From an uncultured Bacilli bacterium (GTDB taxonomy: Bacteria > Bacillota_I > Bacilli_A > RF39 > UBA660): a stretch of DNA of 64,000 bases. This document shows, one piece after another, positions 10,595 to 22,506 of the stretch (its first letter is position 1; each line of letters begins with the position of its first letter). Position numbers and translations under genes: made by a program. The notes under the pieces are model-generated. The model ran no database searches, had not been told where the DNA came from, and worked only from the letters and a program-made list of their open reading frames with translations. The stretch lies in NCBI GenBank assembly GCA_934097085.1, contig CAKONK010000004.1, forward strand, positions 1,907-65,906, given 5' to 3'.

Positions 10595-10760
10595 TTATTA
10601 GAAATTAATTAAATTATTAATTAGATTAATGATTTATATATTTGCTTAGAAAAGCCCATATATTTGGGCTTTTTAATTGTTAAAATGTGGTAATTAGTTT
10701 ACATAATTTGACGATTTGCATATTTTATGGTATAATTATTTTGTTATTCAGGGGGAAAGA

Positions 10761-11411
10761 ATGAATAAAAATGATTATGTCCTCCATAATATATGGAGAA
10801 TGAATAAAAAGGAAATCAATAATTTTAATATAAAAAAAATAACTAATTTTGGTATTGCACTATGTATGATGTTTACAATAATTTTTGCTCCAAGTGTGCA
10901 AAGAGTAAAAGAGGTTAATACTAAAGTATCTTCATTTGATAATTATAATGCTAATATTACTAAAGAAGATAAAGTAGAATACATTTTAAGTAAGTATAAT
11001 TTGACTAAAAATGAATTTAATACTTTAACTGCAATAGTTTTATCTGAGGCACAAAGTAATTCTTATGAAGATGCCTATGCAGTAATTAATACAATTTATA
11101 ATAGAACTCATGCTAAAAATTGGGTTAGAAGTTGTAGTAGTTACTTTGGTAAAAGTAATGGACAAAGTTTATACTATCAAGCAATTATGCCTAATCAGTT
11201 TGTTGTTTATCAACATGGTACTTTTACTAGATATTTAAATAGAACTGATTTAAATGGTTATAATGCTGTTATTGACTTTTTATACGATGAAAAAATAATG
11301 CATAATTATTTATCATTTAGGGCTAATAATATAGTAGTAACTGGTTCTGAAAAATTTAGTACAATGGGTAATAACTATTTTAATACTTTAGAGGAAGGTA
11401 ATAGAATTTAA
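10761..11411 (+). CDS. cell wall hydrolase, SleB-like (Hydrolase_2 family)
   Basis: LTAIVLSEAQSNSYEDAYAVINTIYNRT resembles the SleB catalytic-domain signature; SD gggggaaag before ATG. Confidence 0.5.
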   Translation: MNKNDYVLHNIWRMNKKEINNFNIKKITNFGIALCMMFTIIFAPSVQRVKEVNTKVSSFDNYNANITKEDKVEYILSKYNLTKNEFNTLTAIVLSEAQSNSYEDAYAVINTIYNRTHAKNWVRSCSSYFGKSNGQSLYYQAIMPNQFVVYQHGTFTRYLNRTDLNGYNAVIDFLYDEKIMHNYLSFRANNIVVTGSEKFSTMGNNYFNTLEEGNRI

Positions 11412-12670
11412 CTTTCCTTTTTATTTTGAAAAATATTCATATATTTATTATAAAGTTTTTCATTTTTAGAAATATTTAACTTTTTACATCCATTTTTATA
11501 TATTTTTGCAAGGTTATAGTAGGCATAATAACTTCTCTCAGAAATAGGACAGTTAATTGCTTTATTAAAATAAAACAATGCATCTTTATAATTACCTTCA
11601 TTAATGCATATTTCTCCCATTTTATTTAATGCCCAACTATTTAATAAATCAGCACTTAATTTATAGTAGTTTTTAGCAAGTTTTAAATCATTATTTTTTT
11701 CATAATGCATTCCTAAATTATTATAGGCATATGCATAACCATATTCTGCAGCTTTTTTAAAGTATTTAAGGGCAGTATCTTCATTAATATTTAAATAATA
11801 TCTTCCTAAAGTATTAAGAGCTGCAATACTTCCTAAATCTACAGCTTTATTTAAAAAATTTAACATTATATCAACATTTTTTTCTTTAACTTTATTAGAA
11901 AATATTAAATTACCAATCATCCAAGATGCTTTAGGATGTCCTTTTAAAGCAGCTTTCATATAATATTCATAGCACTTTTCATAGTCTATTTTTCCACTTA
12001 TTAAACCACTATATTCCAGTGATCCAAGTTGTGCATTAGCATACATATTATCTTTTTGTGCAAGAATTTTTAATGAGTTAATATAACTTATTCCTTCATA
12101 AAGATTTATTTTTAAATATTCCTTTAATTCATATTCATTAACATTAATTATAACTTCATCAAATATTGGTTGTTTATTTTCAAGTACTCCATAAAATAAT
12201 AATTCAATGAGAGCTTCATAATAATTGTTATTATCTAAATAATTATTTATTTTTTCTATAAAATTATTGGAAACATTTTCATCCTTTAGATGTAATATAT
12301 CTAAACAAACTTTTTTAATCTTATAATTTTCATTTATTATTTTAATATTAAGATCATCACACTTAATTATTTTTTCCTCTAAAATAGAGATTATATTAGA
12401 AAATATTGGTATAAATACTTCTTTATTATTAGAATAATTTTCTTTTAAATCTAAATATATTTTTTTATATTCTATTCCTATAGGCCTATATCCAATTAAA
12501 TAATTATTTACTGTAGTAGTTTTAATATCATTTATATTAAATACCCCACAAAATACTTCTTTTTGAATACCTGAGGCTTCAACTTTAGAATGTTTTTTTA
12601 TTATATTTATAATATTACCTAAAGATAAATAATTTTTACCATCATTCATTTTAATAAATTTCTTTTTCAT
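11408..12670 (-). CDS. Sel1/TPR-like repeat protein
   Basis: 420 aa; repeated A-x-x-LG-x-x-Y...G Sel1-type motifs in the C-terminal half. Confidence 0.6.
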   Translation of the reverse strand: MKKKFIKMNDGKNYLSLGNIINIIKKHSKVEASGIQKEVFCGVFNINDIKTTTVNNYLIGYRPIGIEYKKIYLDLKENYSNNKEVFIPIFSNIISILEEKIIKCDDLNIKIINENYKIKKVCLDILHLKDENVSNNFIEKINNYLDNNNYYEALIELLFYGVLENKQPIFDEVIINVNEYELKEYLKINLYEGISYINSLKILAQKDNMYANAQLGSLEYSGLISGKIDYEKCYEYYMKAALKGHPKASWMIGNLIFSNKVKEKNVDIMLNFLNKAVDLGSIAALNTLGRYYLNINEDTALKYFKKAAEYGYAYAYNNLGMHYEKNNDLKLAKNYYKLSADLLNSWALNKMGEICINEGNYKDALFYFNKAINCPISERSYYAYYNLAKIYKNGCKKLNISKNEKLYNKYMNIFQNKKES

Positions 12671-12770
12671 ATAACACCTATATTTATTATATCGTGGATT
12701 TATGTGGATTTCAAAATATTCTTTTTTTTATAAATTTAAAATATAATTTTAATAGGAAGGAAGTAAAGAA

Positions 12771-14009
12771 ATGAAAAAAATATTTAAAAATTACAAATCT
12801 ACAATAATTATGTTTATTTCTGTTATTGTAGGAACTATTATTGGAGTTATCTTTAAAGAAAAGGCTACTATATTAAAACCTTTTGGGACTTTATTTATTA
12901 ATTTATTACTTACTATTATAGTACCACTTATATTTTTAACTTTAAGTACCTCTATTGGTAAAATGAAAGAACCAAAAAGACTTGGTAAAATATTAATTAC
13001 TATTATTGGAATATTTGTTTTAACATCACTTATAAGTGTTTTAATAGGTATTGCTTCGACTAATATAACTTTAGTTAATAAAAAAGATAGTATAAAAATA
13101 AAAGAATCATTTGATTATTCAATTACTGATAATGATGAAAAACTTGATATTTTAACAAGAACTGTTAATGCAATTTCCACTGATGATTTTGTAAAAATAA
13201 TTTCTAAAGATAATATTATTGCTTTAATTGTTATATCTATTTTAACTGGTCTTGCTATTCATTTTGCAAAAGATAAAGGTAGAAAAGCTTTAGAAGTATT
13301 AGATAGTTTTAATGATGTGCTTCAAATGCTTATTAAAATTATTATGTATTATGCTCCAATTGGAATAGGGGCTTACTTTGCCTCTTTTGTTGGAGAGTTT
13401 GGTGCAGGTGTTGCCACAAGTTATTTAAAGATGCTTATTATTTATACAGTATCATGTGCATTTGTTTATTTCGTTATTTATAGTTTATATGCCTTTATTT
13501 CAGGTGGTAAAAAAGGATTAAAACTATATTGGCAAAATATAATGGTACCATCAGCTACAGCTCTTGCTACGTGCTCTTCAGCAGCATCAATTCCGGTTAA
13601 TACAAAAGCCGCAAAAAATATTGGGGTTTCTGATGATATAGCAGATACTATAATTCCTCTTGGTACATCATTTCATAAAGATGGTTCAATTATAGGTAGT
13701 GTATTTAAAATAATGTTCTTAGTATATTTATTTGGTATGGATGTTAGTACTTTTAAAGTTCTTGGAGTAAGTATATTAGCAACAATTTTAATTACAGCAG
13801 TACCTATTGGTGGAGGAACTATTTCAGAAATGCTTATTATTAGTTTAATGGGCTTTCCTATAGCAAGTCTTCCAATACTTACAATAATAGCCACAATAAT
13901 AGATGCTCCAGCAACACTTTTAAATGTAGTCGGAGATAGTGCAAGTAGTATGCTTGTTGCAAGAATTATTGATGGTAAAAACTGGCTTAGTAAAAAACAA
14001 AAATTCTAA
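12771..14009 (+). CDS. dicarboxylate/amino acid:cation symporter (DAACS, GltP/SstT family)
   Basis: 412 aa polytopic; typical DAACS motifs (PIGIGAYFASF, SSAASIPV, VGDSASS). Confidence 0.8.
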   Translation: MKKIFKNYKSTIIMFISVIVGTIIGVIFKEKATILKPFGTLFINLLLTIIVPLIFLTLSTSIGKMKEPKRLGKILITIIGIFVLTSLISVLIGIASTNITLVNKKDSIKIKESFDYSITDNDEKLDILTRTVNAISTDDFVKIISKDNIIALIVISILTGLAIHFAKDKGRKALEVLDSFNDVLQMLIKIIMYYAPIGIGAYFASFVGEFGAGVATSYLKMLIIYTVSCAFVYFVIYSLYAFISGGKKGLKLYWQNIMVPSATALATCSSAASIPVNTKAAKNIGVSDDIADTIIPLGTSFHKDGSIIGSVFKIMFLVYLFGMDVSTFKVLGVSILATILITAVPIGGGTISEMLIISLMGFPIASLPILTIIATIIDAPATLLNVVGDSASSMLVARIIDGKNWLSKKQKF

Positions 14010-14031
14010 GATTTATTCTTAGATTTTTTTT
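14005..14031 (+). terminator. rho-independent terminator
   Basis: tctaag-atttatt-cttaga hairpin followed by an 8-T run. Confidence 0.5.
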
Positions 14032-14269
14032 AGAAAAATAATAAATATATAAAACTCTTACAAATCAAGGTATTACCTTGTTCGTATTTTCTTAAATCTT
14101 ATACATTTGAGAAAACATACCCTCGTATTTTCGTACCTTACTACTAAATTATAGCATCAATTTATTTAAAAATCTAGTACCATATTCCGTAAAATAGACA
14201 TTAAATTTTCCTATATGTATAAGATTTAAGAAAAATGACCCCAGTATTTATAAGGGATAGGAGTATAGT

Positions 14270-16126
14270 ATGAATAGAAGTAAAATAACAAAATCGTTAG
14301 CGGTGTTCGCCTCAGTAATATTGATAATCATTATAGGCGTGGCATCATTTGCATATTTTGGAACATTTAGTGTAAATTTAAATAATAATGTAGCAGTAAA
14401 TATAAATTCATCTAGTCCAGGAAATTCAACATTTATCGCAAATGCAACTCAGTTAAATTTAGTAGTCCCAGCGGCAGATATGAGTTTTACTCAGGCAAAT
14501 AATACAGTAGCTGCAAAAGAAGATACAGCATATTTAGATGTAACACTTACAGGTTCACCAAATTTACTTACAACATGTACATATGATATAGTTTATGAAT
14601 ATAATTCGGGAAGTAATGTATATGGACAGGGTACAACAACAAAAACAAGTGGAGCAGATAAAGAAATAACAATAGAAGTAAATGGAATGAATGGAAATAA
14701 TCATTTTGCAGAAGAAACAAATTTTGATTATGCTAATATTCAAAGTTATTATGATAGTACAAATAAATATTATAAGCTAGTTGAAAATGCCACAATAAAA
14801 AGTTTGGGAACAGAACAATCAGTAAGATGGAAAATAATAGGAAGGTATTATAATTTAGATGTAAGTCAAGCACAATTAAGTGGAAAAAACTTTACTGGTA
14901 AAATATATGCAATAAGTAAAGGATGTTCCTCAGAAGATGGTACAACTGTTAAAAAAGGTTATGAAACAATTGTGGCAAATAATGGTGGCTCAGCAAGTAT
15001 GACAACTCTTACATCAACAGATTTTGCAACGGTTACTACAGAAAATGACAAAGGAATGTATAAAGCAACAGATGACTTAGGAACATCATATTATTTTAGA
15101 GGAGCAGTAGATAATAATTGGGTAAAATATGGTAAAGAAACTGCATGTACTTTTAATGGGTCGAAAGTAGTATATGTAGATTCAAAATTTAATTTTAGAA
15201 ATGTAAAAGATGAAGAAGAATGTGTATCCACAACTTTATGCAGTGCTATGGGTGCATATGCAGTAGGATTAAGTGATGATATGTGTACTTCTGCAGGGGG
15301 AGTACCAATAGGTAAAAAAGGTACATATTCTACCCAGGATATGTATTGGCGAATAATAAGAATCAATGGCGATAATTCAATAAGAATGATATATACAGGA
15401 AACGATGCACCAAGTGCTTCAACAAGTGTAATAATGACGGGTTATAAAACTGTGAGTAGTATTAATAGATTTAATACAAATTATGATAGTGCAGAATATG
15501 TAGGATATATGTATACGATAGGAGAGCAACATGGAACAGGAAAAGATAGTACAATAAAAACAGCATTGGATGATTGGTATGCAAATCATACAGATTTAAA
15601 TAAAACTGGAACAAAAATAACAGATCAAATATATTGTAATGATAGAACAGCATCAACTTCAGATGCAGAATATTCAACAACAAATTACACAACACTAACA
15701 AGTTGGAATTCAACTGGAACTACTTATTATTATGGAGCATATGGAAGAATAGCTAAAGATAATAATCCAATGTTAACCTGTGCAGTGGATAGTGATAGAT
15801 TTACAGTTAATAAAACAAATGGTAAAGGAAATAGTGCATTAACATATCCTGTAGGTTTGATAACAATAGATGAGTTGGAAATGGCAGGAAACAATTGGAG
15901 TGAAAGCAACACGAGCTATTATTTACATACTGGAGCTAACTATTGGGCGGGCTCCCCTTATGGATTCGATAGTAATGGTGCTTATGAGTTCCGTGTGGCT
16001 TATGATGGCATTTTGAGCGACTATTTTGTCGATTACAATTTTGGCGTGCGTGGTGTAGTTTCTCTATCCTCTGATGCTAAGTTACTTGGCAGTGGTACAT
16101 ATGATGATGTGTATGTAGTAAGTTAA
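14270..16126 (+). CDS. DGR target (variable) protein: N-terminal TM anchor, large ectodomain, C-terminal C-type-lectin/DUF1566-like variable region
   Basis: 618 aa; C-terminal 40 aa (YWAGSP...GVRGV) contains the VR matching the downstream TR; higher GC than surroundings. Confidence 0.8.
   Translation: MNRSKITKSLAVFASVILIIIIGVASFAYFGTFSVNLNNNVAVNINSSSPGNSTFIANATQLNLVVPAADMSFTQANNTVAAKEDTAYLDVTLTGSPNLLTTCTYDIVYEYNSGSNVYGQGTTTKTSGADKEITIEVNGMNGNNHFAEETNFDYANIQSYYDSTNKYYKLVENATIKSLGTEQSVRWKIIGRYYNLDVSQAQLSGKNFTGKIYAISKGCSSEDGTTVKKGYETIVANNGGSASMTTLTSTDFATVTTENDKGMYKATDDLGTSYYFRGAVDNNWVKYGKETACTFNGSKVVYVDSKFNFRNVKDEEECVSTTLCSAMGAYAVGLSDDMCTSAGGVPIGKKGTYSTQDMYWRIIRINGDNSIRMIYTGNDAPSASTSVIMTGYKTVSSINRFNTNYDSAEYVGYMYTIGEQHGTGKDSTIKTALDDWYANHTDLNKTGTKITDQIYCNDRTASTSDAEYSTTNYTTLTSWNSTGTTYYYGAYGRIAKDNNPMLTCAVDSDRFTVNKTNGKGNSALTYPVGLITIDELEMAGNNWSESNTSYYLHTGANYWAGSPYGFDSNGAYEFRVAYDGILSDYFVDYNFGVRGVVSLSSDAKLLGSGTYDDVYVVS
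15943..16057 (+). repeat. DGR variable repeat (VR)
   Basis: 115-bp match to TR (17038..17152); 21 differences, all at TR adenines; 3' GC-rich ggcgtgcgtggtgta identical in both. Confidence 0.85.
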
Positions 16127-16164
16127 GCTAGAAAGAAGGACTACTTCTCTGAGAAAAGAAAACA

Positions 16165-16183
16165 GCACAATCCTCGATTGTGC
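16165..16183 (+). promoter_or_regulatory. GC-rich perfect hairpin downstream of VR (DGR homing-associated stem-loop candidate)
   Basis: gcacaatc-ctc-gattgtgc, 8-bp perfect stem, about 110 bp after VR 3' end. Confidence 0.5.
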
Positions 16184-16247
16184 GTCGGGCGAAAAATAAA
16201 ACTTAGTGTGGTTGTAGTGTTGAAAAAGTAAAACATACTAAAGTTGT

Positions 16248-16266
16248 ACGCCCCTTTATGGGGCGT
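16248..16266 (+). promoter_or_regulatory. second GC-rich hairpin between target gene and Avd
   Basis: acgcccc-tttat-ggggcgt, 7-bp perfect stem. Confidence 0.45.
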
Positions 16267-16295
16267 ATATTCCACGAAGTGGCAGAAAGGAAAGT

Positions 16296-16637
16296 ATGCA
16301 GTCATTTAAATTAATTAATAAAGCAAATGAATTATATGATTATTCATTTACTTATATTTTAAATAAAATGCCAGGTAAGGCTAAGACTTTTAGGATTGCT
16401 TTGGAAAGTGAATTATATGAGTTAATACATAATATCTATAGAGCAAATATAAATTATGAAAGTGAAAAAATAAGAAGTAAATATCAAAAAGAAGCCTTAG
16501 TGAATTTAAGTACACTTGATTTAATAATAGGTCTTGTGGGAAAGCATAAATACATTAAAATGAAAAGAGTACATGGGTTTTTAGGAATACTTAATGATAC
16601 TAAAAAAATGATGTATGGTTGGATTAAAGAAAAATGA
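16296..16637 (+). CDS. avd: DGR accessory variability determinant (Avd), four-helix-bundle family
   Basis: 113 aa basic protein; MPGKAKTFRIALESELYELIHNIYRAN fits the Avd/four-helix-bundle signature; sits between VR and TR. Confidence 0.65.
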   Translation: MQSFKLINKANELYDYSFTYILNKMPGKAKTFRIALESELYELIHNIYRANINYESEKIRSKYQKEALVNLSTLDLIIGLVGKHKYIKMKRVHGFLGILNDTKKMMYGWIKEK

Positions 16638-16933
16638 ATGATGCACTTTCTAAAATATACGATGATTTGAATGAACTTGTAATGAGAAAAATTCCTCATG
16701 ATAAAGAATTATTAAGTACAAGAATTATTAAAGAACATACTAAGATATGCGAATACACTTTTAATATAATAAATTCTAATAAGGATAAAAATTATATGTT
16801 AGAATTTAAAGTTAGTGTGAAATATATATTATTTGTTCTTGAATACTTTGTTAGTAAAAAAATTATTAATGAAGAAGTTTATAAAACTTTTGAAAAAGAA
16901 TACAAAAATTTATATTTTTTAGTAAACCCTTAA
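16634..16933 (+). CDS. second Avd-like four-helix-bundle protein (paralog?)
   Basis: 99 aa; ATGA-overlapped with avd; IPHDKELLSTRIIKEHTKICEYTFNIIN resembles the same family motif. Confidence 0.4.
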   Translation: MNDALSKIYDDLNELVMRKIPHDKELLSTRIIKEHTKICEYTFNIINSNKDKNYMLEFKVSVKYILFVLEYFVSKKIINEEVYKTFEKEYKNLYFLVNP

Positions 16934-17037
16934 TTTTCTAATTAAGGTAGACATATTATTTTTGGGATTTATGATAATGTGTCTACCATAGTTAAAAAGC
17001 TTTGGGAAGTAAATATTGCTGATAGGGATATGCTACT

Positions 17038-17152
17038 TTGGGCGGGCTCCCCTAATGAATTCAATAGTAATAATGCTAATGAGTTCAATGTGAATAATGA
17101 TGGCAATTTGAACAACAATAATGTCAATAACAATAATGGCGTGCGTGGTGTA
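17038..17152 (+). repeat. DGR template repeat (TR)
   Basis: Asn-codon (AAY)-rich; 16 AAY codons; counterpart of VR; the listed ORF 16979..17215 is an artefact of the TR. Confidence 0.85.
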
Positions 17153-17362
17153 TTTTCCTTACAAAATGAGTATTATTACACAAAGTATTTACTTTATGAA
17201 TGTAATTACTCTTAGACAAATTATGGATAGGAAACAAGCATATTCCTTGGCATTATGCCTAAAATGAAAGTGATGAAGAGAATAGTGTTTATTATATAAT
17301 CGCTTCCTAGTAATACTTTTAATAGCTGTCAGCAATATTTATAAAATTAATGAAAGGAAGGG

Positions 17363-18703
17363 ATGTTTGTAACTGAATTTAATATTGATGAGATATTTAG
17401 TTATGAGAGTGTTGTGTGGGCTTATCATAATGTATGTAAAAATTGTCGGTCATCAATAAAAAAAACTAAGTTTACTTATTTTGCAAATTCTAATATATTT
17501 GATATTTATAATAAATTAAGGGATTTAAGTTATAAATTTTCAAAATATACAATCTTTATAATAAAAGATCCAAAATATAGAGTAATTATGAGCGATACAA
17601 TATATGATAAAATAGTTAACTATTTAGTGGCATATAAAGTGTTACTTCCTGTTTTATCACCAACATTAATTGAACAAAATGTTGCAACTAGGAAAGGAAA
17701 GGGTGCTAGTAAAGCTTACTATTTTTTTGAAAAATATGCAAATAAGTTAAAAGAAAATGGAAGTGTTTATGTTTTAAAAATAGATATAAAAAAATATTTT
17801 TATAATATAAATCATTCAGTGTTATTAAAAATGCTGAAAAAATATATAAGTAGTAGTATGTTAAGTAATTTTATTGTAAATATAATTAATCAGACAAATA
17901 ATGATTATGTAAATAATAATATTAATTATTTAAAAAACAAAATAATACAAGATTTAAATTATAAAAGTATTTCTTTAAAAGAAAAAGAAGAATTAATAAA
18001 AAAAATATATGAAATACCATTATATGATAATGGAAAAGGGCTTTCAATTGGAAATGTTTGTTCTCAAATATTAGCGGTATTCTATTTAAATGAATTCGAT
18101 CATTATATGAAAGAAAAAATTAAATGTAGATGTTATTTAAGATACATGGATGATATAGTAATTTTAAGTAATAGTAAATCATTTTTAAAAGATGTATTTT
18201 ATTTAGCAAATGATAAATTAAAGGAATATAAACTAACTATTAATCCAAAAAGTAACATATATAAATTAAATAATTCTTTTACCTTTTTAGGAAGAACTTA
18301 CTATTTAAAAAATAATATACTTTTATATAGATGCAGAAGCACTACATATAAAAGTATAATGAAAAAATTAAATTATTTAAGAAATAATGATTTCAAAAGT
18401 TATTATTTGAGTAAAATAAGTTACAAAGGTTATTTAAATAAAAATATATATTCTTTAAAAGAAGAGTTCGATTTTTTAAGTAATAAATATAATAATGTAA
18501 TAGTTAAAGATTTTATATATGAAGTTGGGTATGTTATTAGAAGTAATGTTAGTGATGATGTTATTAATGAGGTTTTAGATAATATTGGGATAAGTGTTAT
18601 AAATATTTTTAATATTAAAAGATTTATTAAATATTTTGAATCAAATAATATAAAATATATATATTTAGAAAAAACAAAAATTGTTTTTAAGTATGATTGC
18701 TAG
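17363..18703 (+). CDS. DGR reverse transcriptase
   Basis: 446 aa; motif 4 IGNVCSQ (DGR-specific I/LGxxxSQ) and motif 5 YMDD. Confidence 0.85.
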   Translation: MFVTEFNIDEIFSYESVVWAYHNVCKNCRSSIKKTKFTYFANSNIFDIYNKLRDLSYKFSKYTIFIIKDPKYRVIMSDTIYDKIVNYLVAYKVLLPVLSPTLIEQNVATRKGKGASKAYYFFEKYANKLKENGSVYVLKIDIKKYFYNINHSVLLKMLKKYISSSMLSNFIVNIINQTNNDYVNNNINYLKNKIIQDLNYKSISLKEKEELIKKIYEIPLYDNGKGLSIGNVCSQILAVFYLNEFDHYMKEKIKCRCYLRYMDDIVILSNSKSFLKDVFYLANDKLKEYKLTINPKSNIYKLNNSFTFLGRTYYLKNNILLYRCRSTTYKSIMKKLNYLRNNDFKSYYLSKISYKGYLNKNIYSLKEEFDFLSNKYNNVIVKDFIYEVGYVIRSNVSDDVINEVLDNIGISVINIFNIKRFIKYFESNNIKYIYLEKTKIVFKYDC

Positions 18704-18833
18704 GATAAAGCCTAGCTTTTATTATGTAAATGATTTTACATATTTATATGTGTTAATTAATGTCAAATAAATTATAAAAAAAGTGTCAAAAATGTGTAAA
18801 ATTTTAATTTTTTTTAAGAAATTTATTAAAAAA

Positions 18834-18918
18834 AGGAGGAAATCAGAAATTTACCGGTAATAAATATAATGAAGGGAGGAAATCAGAAATTTACCGGTAA
18901 TAAATATAATGAAGGGAG
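18834..18918. repeat. tandem direct repeat, 2 x 40 bp plus partial third
   Basis: ggaggaaatcagaaatttaccggtaataaatataatgaag repeated exactly with period 40 (18841 vs 18881). Confidence 0.7.
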
Positions 18919-18985: not shown

Positions 18986-19330
18986 ATGAACGAATTAGAA
19001 AAAATTAATGAAACTATTTTTGAAAGTATTAAACATGTAGATGATGAAGGTAATGAATATTGGTATGTAAGGGAATTACAATATATTCTAGGGTATAATC
19101 AGTGGCGAAGTATAAATGATTTAATTAAAAGAGCAAAAGTTGCTTGTAAATAAAGCGATAATAATATTCATGACCATTTTGCGGTACAACGCAAAATGGT
19201 TGATATAGGTTCAAAGACACAAAGAGAAGTTCTTGATTATAAACTATCCAGATATGCTTGTTATTTAATTGCTTAAAATGGTGATAGTAGGAAAAAAGTT
19301 TAAAAGAACTAAAAAAAGAAAATAACAATT
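18986..19330 (+). pseudogene. dinD/Bro-N family gene fragment (stop and frameshift), fused to the conserved 3' junction
   Basis: MNELEKINETIFESIKHVDDEGNEYWYVRELQYILGYNQWRS...VACK then stop; continues out of frame ...KLSRYACYLIA. Confidence 0.6.
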
Positions 19331-19363
19331 TAATTATAAAAAATAGAAATGGAGGTAACTAAA

Positions 19364-20197
19364 ATGAATGAATTAGAAAATATTAATGAAACACTATTTG
19401 AAAGTATTAGACATGTAGATGATGAAGGTAATGAATATTGGTATGCAAGGGAACTACAAAAGGTATTACAATACAACAAATGGGAAAACTTTAAAAAAGT
19501 AATTTTAAAGGCAAAATTGTCCTGTAATGCAAGTAGTTGTGAAATTTCAGAACAGTTTCTTGATATCAGGAAACCGATAATAGGTGGTAATGGAAATGTT
19601 CAATATGTATGTGATTATAAACTATCTAGATATGCTTGTTATCTTATTGCTCAAAATGGTGATAGTAGAAAGAAAGTTATAGCTCTTGCTCAAACATATT
19701 TTGCTATTCAAACTAGGAAACAAGAATTATTAGAGAAAGAATATAATAGTTTAACTGAAGATGAAAAAAGATTCTATCAAAGAGATCTAACTAAAAAAGG
19801 AAATTATTCCTTAAATCAAACTGCTAAAAAGGCTGGAGTAAAGAACTTTGATAAATTTCATAATGCTGGGTATAAAGGTTTATATAATGGAGAAACAGCA
19901 AACGATATTGCTAAAAGAAAGGGATTACGGTATAGGGAGGATGTTTTAGATAATATGGGAAGTGATGAACTGATAGCTAATTTATTTAGAATATCTCAAA
20001 CTAATCAAAGACTTAATAATGATAATATTCAAGGTGAAAAAGCAGCTTGCTTAACACATAATAAAATTGGAAAAATTGTTAGAAAAGCTATAAAAGAGGC
20101 TGGTGGTACAATGCCTGAGGATTTACCAACACCAGATAAAAGTTTAAAAGAACTAAAAAAAGAAAATAATAATCTAATAATTAAAAATAGAAAGTGA
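19364..20197 (+). CDS. DNA-damage-inducible protein D (DinD)-like, Bro-N domain protein, copy 1
   Basis: Matches DinD as I recall it (HLSRYACYL..QNGD, GQTYFAIQTR, HMGS.ELAANLFR.TQT, GGTMPE.LPTP); SD ggaggt before ATG 19364. Confidence 0.7.
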   Translation: MNELENINETLFESIRHVDDEGNEYWYARELQKVLQYNKWENFKKVILKAKLSCNASSCEISEQFLDIRKPIIGGNGNVQYVCDYKLSRYACYLIAQNGDSRKKVIALAQTYFAIQTRKQELLEKEYNSLTEDEKRFYQRDLTKKGNYSLNQTAKKAGVKNFDKFHNAGYKGLYNGETANDIAKRKGLRYREDVLDNMGSDELIANLFRISQTNQRLNNDNIQGEKAACLTHNKIGKIVRKAIKEAGGTMPEDLPTPDKSLKELKKENNNLIIKNRK

Positions 20198-20205
20198 GGT
20201 AAAAA

Positions 20206-20560
20206 ATGAACGAATTAGAAAAAATAAATGATACTATATTTGAAAGTATTATACATGTAGATGATGAAGGTAATGAATATTGGTATGCAAGAGAACTGCA
20301 ATATATTTTAGGGTATAATCAGTGGCGAAGTATAAATGATTTAATTAAAAGAGCTAAAGTTGCTTGTAAAGGAAGTGAAAATAATGTTGATTATCATTTT
20401 GCGGTCTACCGCAAAATGATAAATATTGCAAAGGGTGCAACTAGAAATGTGATATAAACTATCCAGATATGCTTGTTATTTAATTGCTTAAAATGGTGAT
20501 AGTAGGAAAAAAGTTTAAAAGAACTAAAAAAAGAAAATAACAATTTAATTATAAAAAATA
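20206..20560 (+). pseudogene. dinD/Bro-N family gene fragment, near-duplicate of 18986..19330
   Basis: 83-aa N-terminal ORF then frame break; same junction sequence. Confidence 0.6.
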
Positions 20561-20578
20561 GAAATGGAGGTAACTAAA

Positions 20579-21418
20579 ATGAATGAATTAGAAAATATTA
20601 ATGAAACACTATTTGAAAGTATTAGACATGTAGATGATGAAGGTAATGAATATTGGTATGCAAGGGAACTACAAAAGGTATTACAATACAACAAATGGGA
20701 AAACTTTAAAAAAGTAATTTTAAAGGCAAAATTGTCCTGTAATGCAAGTAGTTGTGAAATTTCAGAACAGTTTCTTGATATCAGGAAACCGATAATAGGT
20801 GGTAATGGAAATGTTCAATATGTATGTGATTATAAACTATCTAGATATGCTTGTTATCTTATTGCTCAAAATGGTGATAGTAGAAAGAAAGTTATAGCTC
20901 TTGCTCAAACATATTTTGCTATTCAAACTAGGAAACAAGAATTATTAGAGAAAGAATATAATAGTTTAACTGAAGATGAAAAAAGAATATATCAAAGAAA
21001 TCAAGCAAGAAAAGGAAATTATAATTTAAATAAGACAGCTGTTAATAGTGGAGTAAAAGATTTAGCAAGATTTCATAATGCTGGTTATAAAGGCTTATAT
21101 AATGGTGAAACCGCTGATGATATTTTTAAAAGAAAAAAATTAAGATATAGGGAAGATATTTTAGATAATATGGGAAGTGAAGAACTTGCAGCGAATTTAT
21201 TTAGAATAACTCAAACTGAATCTAAATTAAAAAAAGATAATGTAAGTGGTGAAGGTAATGCAATTGATACTCATTATGAGGTTGGTAAAGAAGTTCGTAA
21301 TACAATAGAAAGATTAGGCGGTACTATGCCTGAGGATTTACCAACACCAGATAAAAGTTTAAAAGAAATTGAAAAAGAAAACAATTTAATTATAAAAAAT
21401 AGAAATGGAGGTAACTAA
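20579..21418 (+). CDS. DinD-like Bro-N domain protein, copy 2
   Basis: First ~140 codons DNA-identical to copy 1 across the inspected stretches, C-terminal half diverged. Confidence 0.7.
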   Translation: MNELENINETLFESIRHVDDEGNEYWYARELQKVLQYNKWENFKKVILKAKLSCNASSCEISEQFLDIRKPIIGGNGNVQYVCDYKLSRYACYLIAQNGDSRKKVIALAQTYFAIQTRKQELLEKEYNSLTEDEKRIYQRNQARKGNYNLNKTAVNSGVKDLARFHNAGYKGLYNGETADDIFKRKKLRYREDILDNMGSEELAANLFRITQTESKLKKDNVSGEGNAIDTHYEVGKEVRNTIERLGGTMPEDLPTPDKSLKEIEKENNLIIKNRNGGN

Positions 21419-22247: not shown

Positions 22248-22506
22248 TGAAATGGTATTTAAAGGGATTAAACATATTGATGAGAATGGAAATGAATATT
22301 GATATGCAAGAGAATTGCAAAATGTGAAAAGGTGGAATAAATTTTGTAATGCACTAGAAAGTGCACAAATTGCCTGTGGTGTTAGCAATAATAATGTGTC
22401 AGACCATTTTTCCCACTTGGGAAAAATGGTCAATATTGGCTCTAATACTTTTAAAAATATAGTTGATTACAAACTGTCGAGATATGCATATCACATAATG
22501 TTTTAA
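22248..22506 (+). pseudogene. dinD/Bro-N family terminal fragment
   Basis: ENGNEY then stop then YARELQ...DYKLSRYAYHIMF; truncated, ends the array. Confidence 0.5.

Follow-up and report, generated by a model that had tools for sequence, protein, structure and literature searches.

The DGR in the analysed stretch of DNA (64 kb; hereafter the window) carries two perfect hairpins in the spacer between its target gene and avd, and the first of these, HP1, is probably a target-site hairpin of the DGR, with a loop class not listed before, and a candidate homing element most likely acting as DNA. Judging from sequence comparison, we think it rather probable that HP1 is a cis-acting part of the target site, being this clade's version of the inverted repeat by which, in the BPP-1 DGR, VR and not TR is marked as recipient and mutagenic homing becomes more efficient, and that the second hairpin, HP2, is a different element. 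HP1 is a VR-side, DGR-specific structural element, which is kept through complete replacement of its stem and has no counterpart after TR.

The DGR locus and the hairpins in its target-avd spacer

The element comes from a human-gut Bacilli MAG that has the database label 'uncultured Mycoplasma sp.'. All its parts lie on the + strand. The target gene (14270..16126, from the ORF list) encodes 618 aa, and a Pfam search with its product, including the halves of the protein, found no family. VR (15943..16057), located by repeat comparison with TR, lies inside the target ORF close to the 3' end, with 21 more codons past it. It differs from positions 17038-17152 of TR at 21 sites, and 21/21 of these mismatches are at TR adenines. 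The final 15 nt of VR (16043-16057) are the GC-rich IMH core, GGCGTGCGTGGTGTA. Alignments of relatives delimited a segment directly 3' of this core, GTTTCTCTATCCTCTGAT (16058..16075), which is unlike the TR side and almost unchanged in nucleotide sequence among relatives; it is probably the distal part of the IMH. Beyond the spacer follows avd (16296..16637), which encodes a bAvd-like accessory protein of 113 aa with a Pfam match to bAvd (PF22296, E = 3.3e-7) at 31.2 bits, under the curated cut-off of 40. A small second ORF from the ORF list, orf2 (16634..16933, 99 aa), is kept in L002 and L004; a Pfam search and a BLASTP comparison with Avd gave nothing informative for it. TR with IMH* at its 3' end (17038..17157, from repeat comparison with VR) is adjoined by a conserved block, AGGGATATGCTA, at 17024-17035, and the last gene (17363..18703) encodes the reverse transcriptase (RT) of 446 aa, which matched RVT_1 with E = 7.8e-20 in the Pfam search.

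The DGR is evidently active, as read from a comparison of two strains. Between the window and L001, the GTDB species representative and another strain, the cassette (16042 to 18703, 2.66 kb) is 99.7% identical with 7 differences, whereas the 83-nt variable core has 23, all of them at TR-A sites. Relatives from metagenomes likewise have near-identical spacers and differing VRs. We searched the window for further VR copies and found none, and related loci had no convincing second target.

The initial annotation had placed two hairpins in the target-avd spacer, and both are present there. HP1 (16165-16183, + strand) is a perfect 8-bp inverted repeat, GCACAATC-CTC-GATTGTGC, with 4 G/C pairs and a 3-nt loop; it starts 39 nt past the target stop codon and 103 nt past the end of the TR/VR homology. 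HP2 (16247-16267, + strand), one pair longer than first listed, is a perfect 8-bp inverted repeat, TACGCCCC-TTTAT-GGGGCGTA, with 6 G/C pairs and a 5-nt loop, starting 185 nt past the end of the homology; a G16246.T16268 wobble adds to its 8 Watson-Crick pairs. The region had been called GC-rich, which holds relative to the downstream DGR genes (0.36-0.40 in the spacer versus about 0.15-0.27); of the HP1 stem, half is G/C. Fold prediction, proposed at the time as a check, bore the hairpins out: for the whole 169-nt spacer, z was -3.7 with RNA and -5.1 with DNA parameters, and 0/200 shuffles did as well. Folded singly as DNA, HP1 reached -7.4 kcal/mol (z = -4.7) and HP2 -9.7 kcal/mol (z = -5.0). 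Perfect hairpins with 8 bp or more, 4 or more of them G/C pairs, occur 6 times in the window versus 0.27 expected from dinucleotide shuffles, and 2 of the 6 fall in the spacer. HP1 and HP2 are real, non-random structures.

Two lesser structures share the spacer. HP3 (16272..16282, + strand), with the sequence CCAC-GAA-GTGG, is a small, weak stem (-2.0 kcal/mol, z = -2.3) that lies past HP2, just ahead of the avd ribosome-binding site. A weak 5-bp stem, AGAAG-GACTA-CTTCT (16134..16148, + strand), emerged from folding and alignment (-2.9 kcal/mol as DNA, z = -2.4); it varies in 6 of 15 columns, has 7 bp in close relatives and is seen only in the closest group. Stems of at least 6 bp were found neither between 16058 and 16164 nor in the 205 nt 3' of the window TR. 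A permissive Rfam search (E <= 10) of 15500-17600 gave no match within 16127-16295, and at gathering thresholds the whole window yielded three tRNAs only.

A family of C-Y-C-loop hairpins after DGR targets

We compared the locus with a set of about 90 related elements. An RT search confirmed 120 relatives in genome contigs, of which the best 80 were kept, and 40 further loci were obtained via Avd; TR/VR pairs were found through their A-biased mismatches in 52 genome-contig loci. From these DGRs of gut Bacilli/Mollicutes-like MAGs, the family was defined by a perfect Watson-Crick hairpin no more than about 60 nt past the target stop codon with C[CT]C in the loop; for the counts, perfect hairpins of at least 8 bp with such a loop were taken up to 200 nt past VR. 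The initial annotation had suggested looking for a conserved hairpin in related DGRs, and the comparison did find one: a C-Y-C hairpin is present 3' of VR in 31 of the 52 loci and 3' of TR in 0/52. These hairpins begin 4-56 nt past the stop codon and 78-130 nt past the VR homology. Their stems are 8-15 bp long (10-15 bp in most relatives), have 3-7 G/C pairs and are often A/T-rich, and the loops CTCT, CTCC, ACCC, CCCT or CTC are carried by about 14 unrelated stem sequences, for example CGAGGCTCGA-CTCT-TCGAGCCTCG in L004, AATCCTGTGGAA-ACCC-TTCCACAGGATT in L008, TGGGGCAAATGA-CTCC-TCATTTGCCCCA in L017 and GCTCAAAAGCGA-CTCT-TCGCTTTTGAGC in L036. Many loops have a GACTC core, the complement of GAGTC, a recognition site of a nicking enzyme; neither the ACCC class nor the window has this core. 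Among 21 distinct hairpins (window excluded), double (compensatory) changes affect 10 of the 11 pairs in the stem, and one C of the loop never varies. Since the hairpins were selected as perfect palindromes, their being 98% paired follows by construction, and the independent evidence is the turnover of stem sequence together with the conservation of the loop. About 20 of the 52 loci, mostly the more distant ones, are without a C-Y-C loop and have other hairpin types or none. A scan of viral contigs with the RT returned two distant loci only, which were uninformative on hairpins.

HP1 of the window is perfect, lies within about 60 nt of the stop codon and has the loop CTC, which would make it a short family member, with 8 bp and a 3-nt loop versus a 4-nt loop in most relatives. 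At the HP1 site, L084 (Avd 96% identical) has the replaced stem GCGCAAA-CTCC-TTTGCGC, and in L116 the replaced stem GTAGCCTCGA-CTTT-TCGAGGCTAC encloses a loop without C-Y-C. A MAFFT/RNAalifold analysis of the stop-to-avd spacer from 8 relatives recovered HP2 in register and did not recover HP1; the HP1 stems are unrelated in sequence and fall out of register, so the comparison was anchored on the loops. A covariance model, R1, built from the 21 family hairpins with the window excluded, gave no match at 16165-16183 at E <= 10, and its best matches in the window were generic A/T hairpins (E = 0.3-0.9). R1 is poor in information (0.93 bit per position) and describes a stem of 10-12 bp with a 4-nt loop and an A-T closing pair. 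It acted as a generic hairpin detector and missed HP1, so we dropped it as a tool for membership or specificity and used explicit hairpin counts with controls instead. HP1 is best regarded as a weak member, assigned to the family by its position and by synteny with L004, L084 and L116.

The C-Y-C loop is specific to DGR targets. The window and the related loci contain 467 other ORF ends; perfect hairpins of 8 bp or more were found at 75 of them, and 3 of these 75 have a C[CT]C loop. The stems in the three exceptions (L018, L026 and L041) are the same as those of known target hairpins, and in two of them the downstream block is also the same, so that all three appear to be DGR targets missed by the A-bias filter. 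The hairpin adjoins the target stop codon in elements arranged target-avd-orf2-TR-RT, such as the window (855 nt to TR), and also in elements arranged target-TR-avd-RT (about 80 nt to TR).

Within 17 distinct spacers of close RT-bearing relatives, variable columns number 0/19 in HP1 and 0/21 in HP2 versus 27/79 in the flanking spacers. A related lineage (L089, L102, L103, L106 and L112) no longer has the RT or the 3' half of TR, the loss being at a junction that its members share; its target, avd and orf2 ORFs are still open. Only in this lineage is the 5' arm of HP1 scrambled, with GCTATAGTCTA replacing GCACAATCCTC; the lineage represents one evolutionary event, which makes the observation suggestive only. 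The VRs are identical in three members from different samples, and L102 differs.

Alternative roles for HP1 and HP2

A stem-loop directly past a gene, with structure kept and sequence not, is also what intrinsic terminators have, and a plain target-gene terminator was the outcome that the initial annotation had named as speaking against a homing role. HP1, HP2 or both could be RNA elements that end the target mRNA, either by intrinsic termination or by barring 3' exonucleases with a stem-loop, and have no part in homing; we regard this as unlikely, and we give no more credit to its rationale, by which an abundant target message would be kept apart from a rarely needed avd-RT message. Both hairpins do lie just past the stop codon, the usual place for such elements, the HP2 stem is strong in G/C and is followed in most close relatives by the moderately T-rich tail TATAGTTTCC, HP2 persists in most of the RT-less relatives, and some DGRs have terminators past the IMH (Wu et al., PMC5758913). 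However, a terminator scan of the + strand called none here, and there is no coding-strand T-tract in the tails of HP1 (GTCGGGCG, also given as GTCGGGCGAA) and HP2 (TATTCCAC, also given as TATTCCACGA). T-rich tails follow 3 of 36 family hairpins versus 36 of the 75 hairpins at other gene ends (48%), and in L011 a canonical T-tract terminator directly follows the CTCT hairpin as a separate structure. When a wobble-allowing finder was applied alike to both classes, G.U pairs made up 0 of 255 pairs in C-Y-C hairpins versus 40 of 434 (9%) in terminator-like hairpins of the same loci, which had fewer A.C than G.U pairs (9 in 257), as expected of RNA structures. If a structure has to form in DNA, its pairs would be expected to be strictly Watson-Crick. 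Terminators are likewise not expected to have a conserved loop sequence that is confined to DGR targets, the RT-less lineage has a scrambled HP1 next to an intact target ORF, and efficient termination at HP2 would oblige the avd promoter to lie within the 29 nt ahead of the ATG. Within 15800-17500, the sole terminator-like call was HP1 on the minus strand (GCACAATCGAGGATTGTGC, then TGTTTTCTTT), and the 10 nt ahead of the hairpin are A-rich in the window and in some relatives. That HP1 is a minus-strand terminator shielding the target from antisense transcription off the avd side nevertheless seems very improbable to us: no minus-strand gene or promoter is directed into HP1, the A-richness is not general (family median 4-5 A in 10 nt, with 0 in one case), and the conservation of the sense-strand loop and the DGR specificity would be left unexplained.

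The conserved loop resembles an anti-Shine-Dalgarno sequence (CTCC/CCTC), Avd binds nucleic acids (PMC5758913), and a conserved G-rich block, tAGGGAWATGCTA, stands ahead of every TR and stays with it. HP1 might accordingly be a regulatory RNA or DNA element rather than a homing element, for example a binding site of Avd or ORF2 that acts on avd-RT read-through or translation, or a loop that pairs with purine-rich sequence. This we hold to be quite improbable, and the partners proposed for the loop, the ribosome-binding site or the AGGGA block ahead of TR, share that rating. Complementarity of the loop to its own TR-region RNA came to 5.24 nt versus 5.31 nt with other loci, and loop pairing of the 'kissing' or guide type was rejected. 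The G-rich block does not co-vary with loop class, and loop class shows no clean correlation with the accessory genes (Avd only, or Avd with a MutS-domain-I-like ORF). The lack of G.U pairs speaks against a structure formed in RNA only, and the distance from the hairpin to avd or TR spans about 55 to about 860 nt across the family.

The initial annotation had treated both hairpins as one kind and as candidate homing enhancers; the candidacy survives for HP1, and the grouping finds no support, since HP2 occurs only where avd directly follows the target, survives in most members of the RT-less lineage and lies near the avd start. HP2 of the L004 type has one compensatory change, a G-C pair having become A-T, and L116 has an entirely different stem (TTGACCC-TTTA-GGGTCAA) around the TTTA(T) loop; the HP3 site in relatives has another small hairpin, ATGACC-TTTA-GGTCAT. 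A promoter-like sequence, TTGTAG-N18-TACTAA (16212..16241, + strand), was recognised by eye in the alignments; it is a weak match and was not called by a consensus promoter scan. Most close relatives have TTGAAA-N18-TACTAA at this place, and the L004 type has TTGAGA-N16/17-TAAAAA(T). In L007, L008 and L039, a clearer extended -10 promoter follows the C-Y-C hairpin, and past this promoter comes a second hairpin, ahead of the first accessory gene. HP2 looks like part of a leader because it is limited to a sub-clade, is mostly kept without the RT, ends 29 nt ahead of the avd ATG and has the promoter-like sequence upstream, and with modest confidence we assign HP2 and HP3 to the 5' leader of an avd-orf2-TR-RT transcript. 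In Firmicutes, 5'-terminal stem-loops stabilise mRNAs. HP2 and HP3 resemble such stabilisers in that a strong hairpin stands a few nucleotides past a promoter-like sequence and shortly before the first ribosome-binding site of the operon, and the second hairpin of L007, L008 and L039 stands in the same relation to the clearer promoter. The promoter match in the window is weak, however, and HP2 could equally be an attenuator. Possible roles of HP2 are a 5' stabiliser or a leaky attenuator limiting read-through from the target gene, and it may be a leaky terminator of that gene. The proposal that the hairpins mark the start of the DGR RNA thus holds weakly for HP2 only, and the TR-proximal block at 17024-17035 is a rival, a second candidate start of the template RNA.

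Comparison with the BPP-1 hairpin and a possible role in homing

In BPP-1, a 24-bp sequence directly past VR forms a hairpin or cruciform that enhances homing; pairing of the stem is needed while its sequence is free, the 4-nt GAAA loop is sequence- and size-dependent, and moving the hairpin by a few bp lowers activity (PMC3240598). Related phage DGRs have GC-rich stems of 7-10 bp with GRNA loops 4-34 bp past VR (PMC3240598), and myDGR applies exactly these BPP-1-type criteria (PMC6602519). A survey found high-confidence GC-rich repeats in 34% of DGRs with little evidence for terminators, and judged the element not universal (PMC5758913). In a reconstituted E. coli system, deletion of the stem-loop impairs homing and targets co-directional with replication are favoured; the authors suggested that, owing to the stem-loop, the lagging-strand template stays open for longer, and the way in which cDNA finds and enters the target is the least understood DGR step (PMC12875486).

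HP1 resembles the BPP-1 hairpin in accompanying VR alone, at a place 3' of the IMH, with none after TR. The HP1 family shares with it a free stem sequence with pairing kept, a conserved loop and the lack of terminator-like features, and its perfect Watson-Crick stems are consistent with a DNA structure as in BPP-1. The differences concern loop, distance and stem. The loops of HP1 (CTC, 3 nt) and HP2 (TTTAT, 5 nt) depart from the 4-nt GRNA of the BPP-1 type, and the antisense sequences of the family loops (AGAG, GGAG, GGGT) are also unlike GRNA. HP1 lies 103 nt past the TR/VR homology (78-130 nt in the family) versus 4-34 bp, so the position equivalent to the Bordetella element that had been claimed for the hairpins does not apply. 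This larger distance follows from the 21-27 codons that the clade has past VR, which put the first non-coding position 63-81 nt away. The HP1 stem has 8 bp with 50% G/C and relatives have 10-15 bp, often A/T-rich, versus 7-10 GC-rich bp in the BPP-1 type. GC skew is positive on the + strand in 28 of 32 two-kb bins, including all bins from 14 to 28 kb, so that the target would be co-directional with replication and the sense strand of VR and HP1 the presumed lagging-strand template; this argument is weak since most genes in such genomes share the positive skew. By GC skew, the orientation of HP1 is the one that reportedly favours homing in the E. coli system (PMC12875486). Group IIC introns use terminator stem-loops as DNA targets (discussed in PMC3240598) and exemplify a retroelement able to read such a hairpin in single-stranded DNA.

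We propose that HP1 acts as a strictly Watson-Crick palindrome in the first non-coding DNA past the target ORF, its stem sequence being free to change and its sense-strand loop held to a C-Y-C pyrimidine core. Where the sense strand is single-stranded, HP1 would fold as a DNA hairpin, or it would form a cruciform under supercoiling. The hairpin may keep the neighbouring IMH and VR open or stall gap filling, upon which adenine-mutagenised cDNA from TR could anneal and be copied in, and the conserved loop might be recognised by a partner particular to the clade, RT-Avd or a host factor. More tentatively, and as a possibility we would not yet back, the C-Y-C palindrome could be a second, clade-specific homing 'address label', a DNA hairpin read in a sequence-specific manner through its pyrimidine loop. 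The particulars are just as speculative: the reader would be this clade's RT-Avd complex or a host factor of replication or repair, the label would work on the lagging-strand template over a distance of about 100 nt, and it would in principle be interchangeable with the GRNA-loop hairpin of Proteobacterial phage DGRs.

The BPP-1-type hairpin is the only cis element known besides the IMH, and its loop sequence requirement is unexplained. Our comparison indicates that a large clade of human- and animal-gut DGRs carries a hairpin missed by BPP-1 criteria, equally target-specific, with another conserved loop and at a much larger offset. This suggests that more DGRs than assumed may require a hairpin, each clade with a loop 'code' of its own. 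The two loop classes, the many stems and the RT-less lineage with a broken hairpin form a natural comparison set for finding the loop reader, and the motif could help to call target genes more reliably in metagenomes and to design synthetic targets. If the 'address label' idea is true, the genes open to diversification by a given RT clade would be predictable from loop type, remote targets could be found by the motif, and the hairpin would offer a portable handle for DGR engineering in Gram-positive hosts.

Conserved elements upstream of the template repeat

Nearly all related DGRs carry a block, tAGGGAWATGCTA, 0-110 nt 5' of the template repeat (TR); it lies at 17024-17035 in the window and at the matching positions upstream of TR in the related loci L002-L050. 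It reads GGGGATTAAACTG in one sub-group of these DGRs, and a TATAAT-like hexamer often directly precedes it. The block keeps with TR, whereas HP1, the perfect hairpin that follows the target stop codon, keeps with the target gene. We consider the block a candidate for the 5' end of the template RNA.

The stretch between orf2 and TR contains a long, imperfect inverted repeat at 16935-16998, whose 25-nt arms are 84% complementary. The related locus L002 retains it via compensatory changes (GACAT...ATGTC to GGCAC...GTGCC), and the strongest sigma-70-like match in this region (TAGACA-16-TATGAT, 16948-16975) falls inside it. The inverted repeat may be a promoter, an operator or the leader of the TR RNA.

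Other hairpins and repeats

In DGRs that belong to the same RT family but are more distantly related (L051, L058, L059, L062, L064-L070 and L073), we observed a different class of post-stop hairpin within the first 40 nt past the target stop codon. These hairpins start 3-5 nt past the stop codon and have outer stems of the GTTTCC...GGAAAC type, with an internal mismatch, and loops of 7-8 nt such as GCAAGGT and GCAAAGA. They may represent a third loop 'dialect'.

Immediately 3' of the RT stop codon are two tandem 40-nt copies (18827-18906; 93% identical), each containing GGAGGAAATCAGAAATTTACCGGTAATAAATA. Directly past the DGR follows a run of paralogous genes (18986-21418), made up of full and short copies (two of each) together with partial repeats; the one gene of the run that was scanned (19349-20197) encodes a Bro-N domain. 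Three related perfect hairpins accompany the paralogous genes (19173-19200, 20391-20422 and 22402-22431), with G/C-containing, CCATTTTGCG-type stems of 11-14 bp. Together with 10650-10673, they are the four strong hairpins of the window besides HP1 and HP2, the latter preceding avd.

Accessory ORFs and the target protein

Many related DGRs contain an extra accessory ORF of ~120 aa (L007 4747-5118, L008 2922-3293, L020 1068-1427, L025 5191-5559, L028 2883-3302, L031 5277-5639, L039 4655-5029 and L050 744-1148). These ORFs share the motif IYLF.CGNFY..LD.DA...KCGFP, which we take to resemble the N-terminal mismatch-binding domain of MutS. The equivalent slot in the window holds an unrelated 99-aa ORF (orf2, 16634-16933). 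Neither ORF2 nor the target protein (618 aa, 14270-16126) matched a Pfam family, even at E <= 5. At the C terminus of the target protein, the scaffold that carries the VR presumably adopts a divergent C-type-lectin-like fold.

Partial loss and near-identity of the cassette

Five metagenome contigs from close relatives (L089, L102, L103, L106 and L112) have lost the 3' half of TR and the entire RT gene at a single common breakpoint, corresponding to ~17102 in the window. The target, avd and orf2 frames are still open in this lineage, and three members have an identical VR. The HP1 arm is scrambled in all five, and L102 has additionally lost the HP2 pairing.

We also compared window 11363-18882 with L001, the GTDB representative of the species and another strain. 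VR differed at 23 positions, which are TR-adenine sites. The DGR cassette (16042-18703) was 99.7% identical but the flanking genes differed by ~2.7% or more, and this divergence pattern suggests that the cassette is under strong constraint or was recently exchanged.
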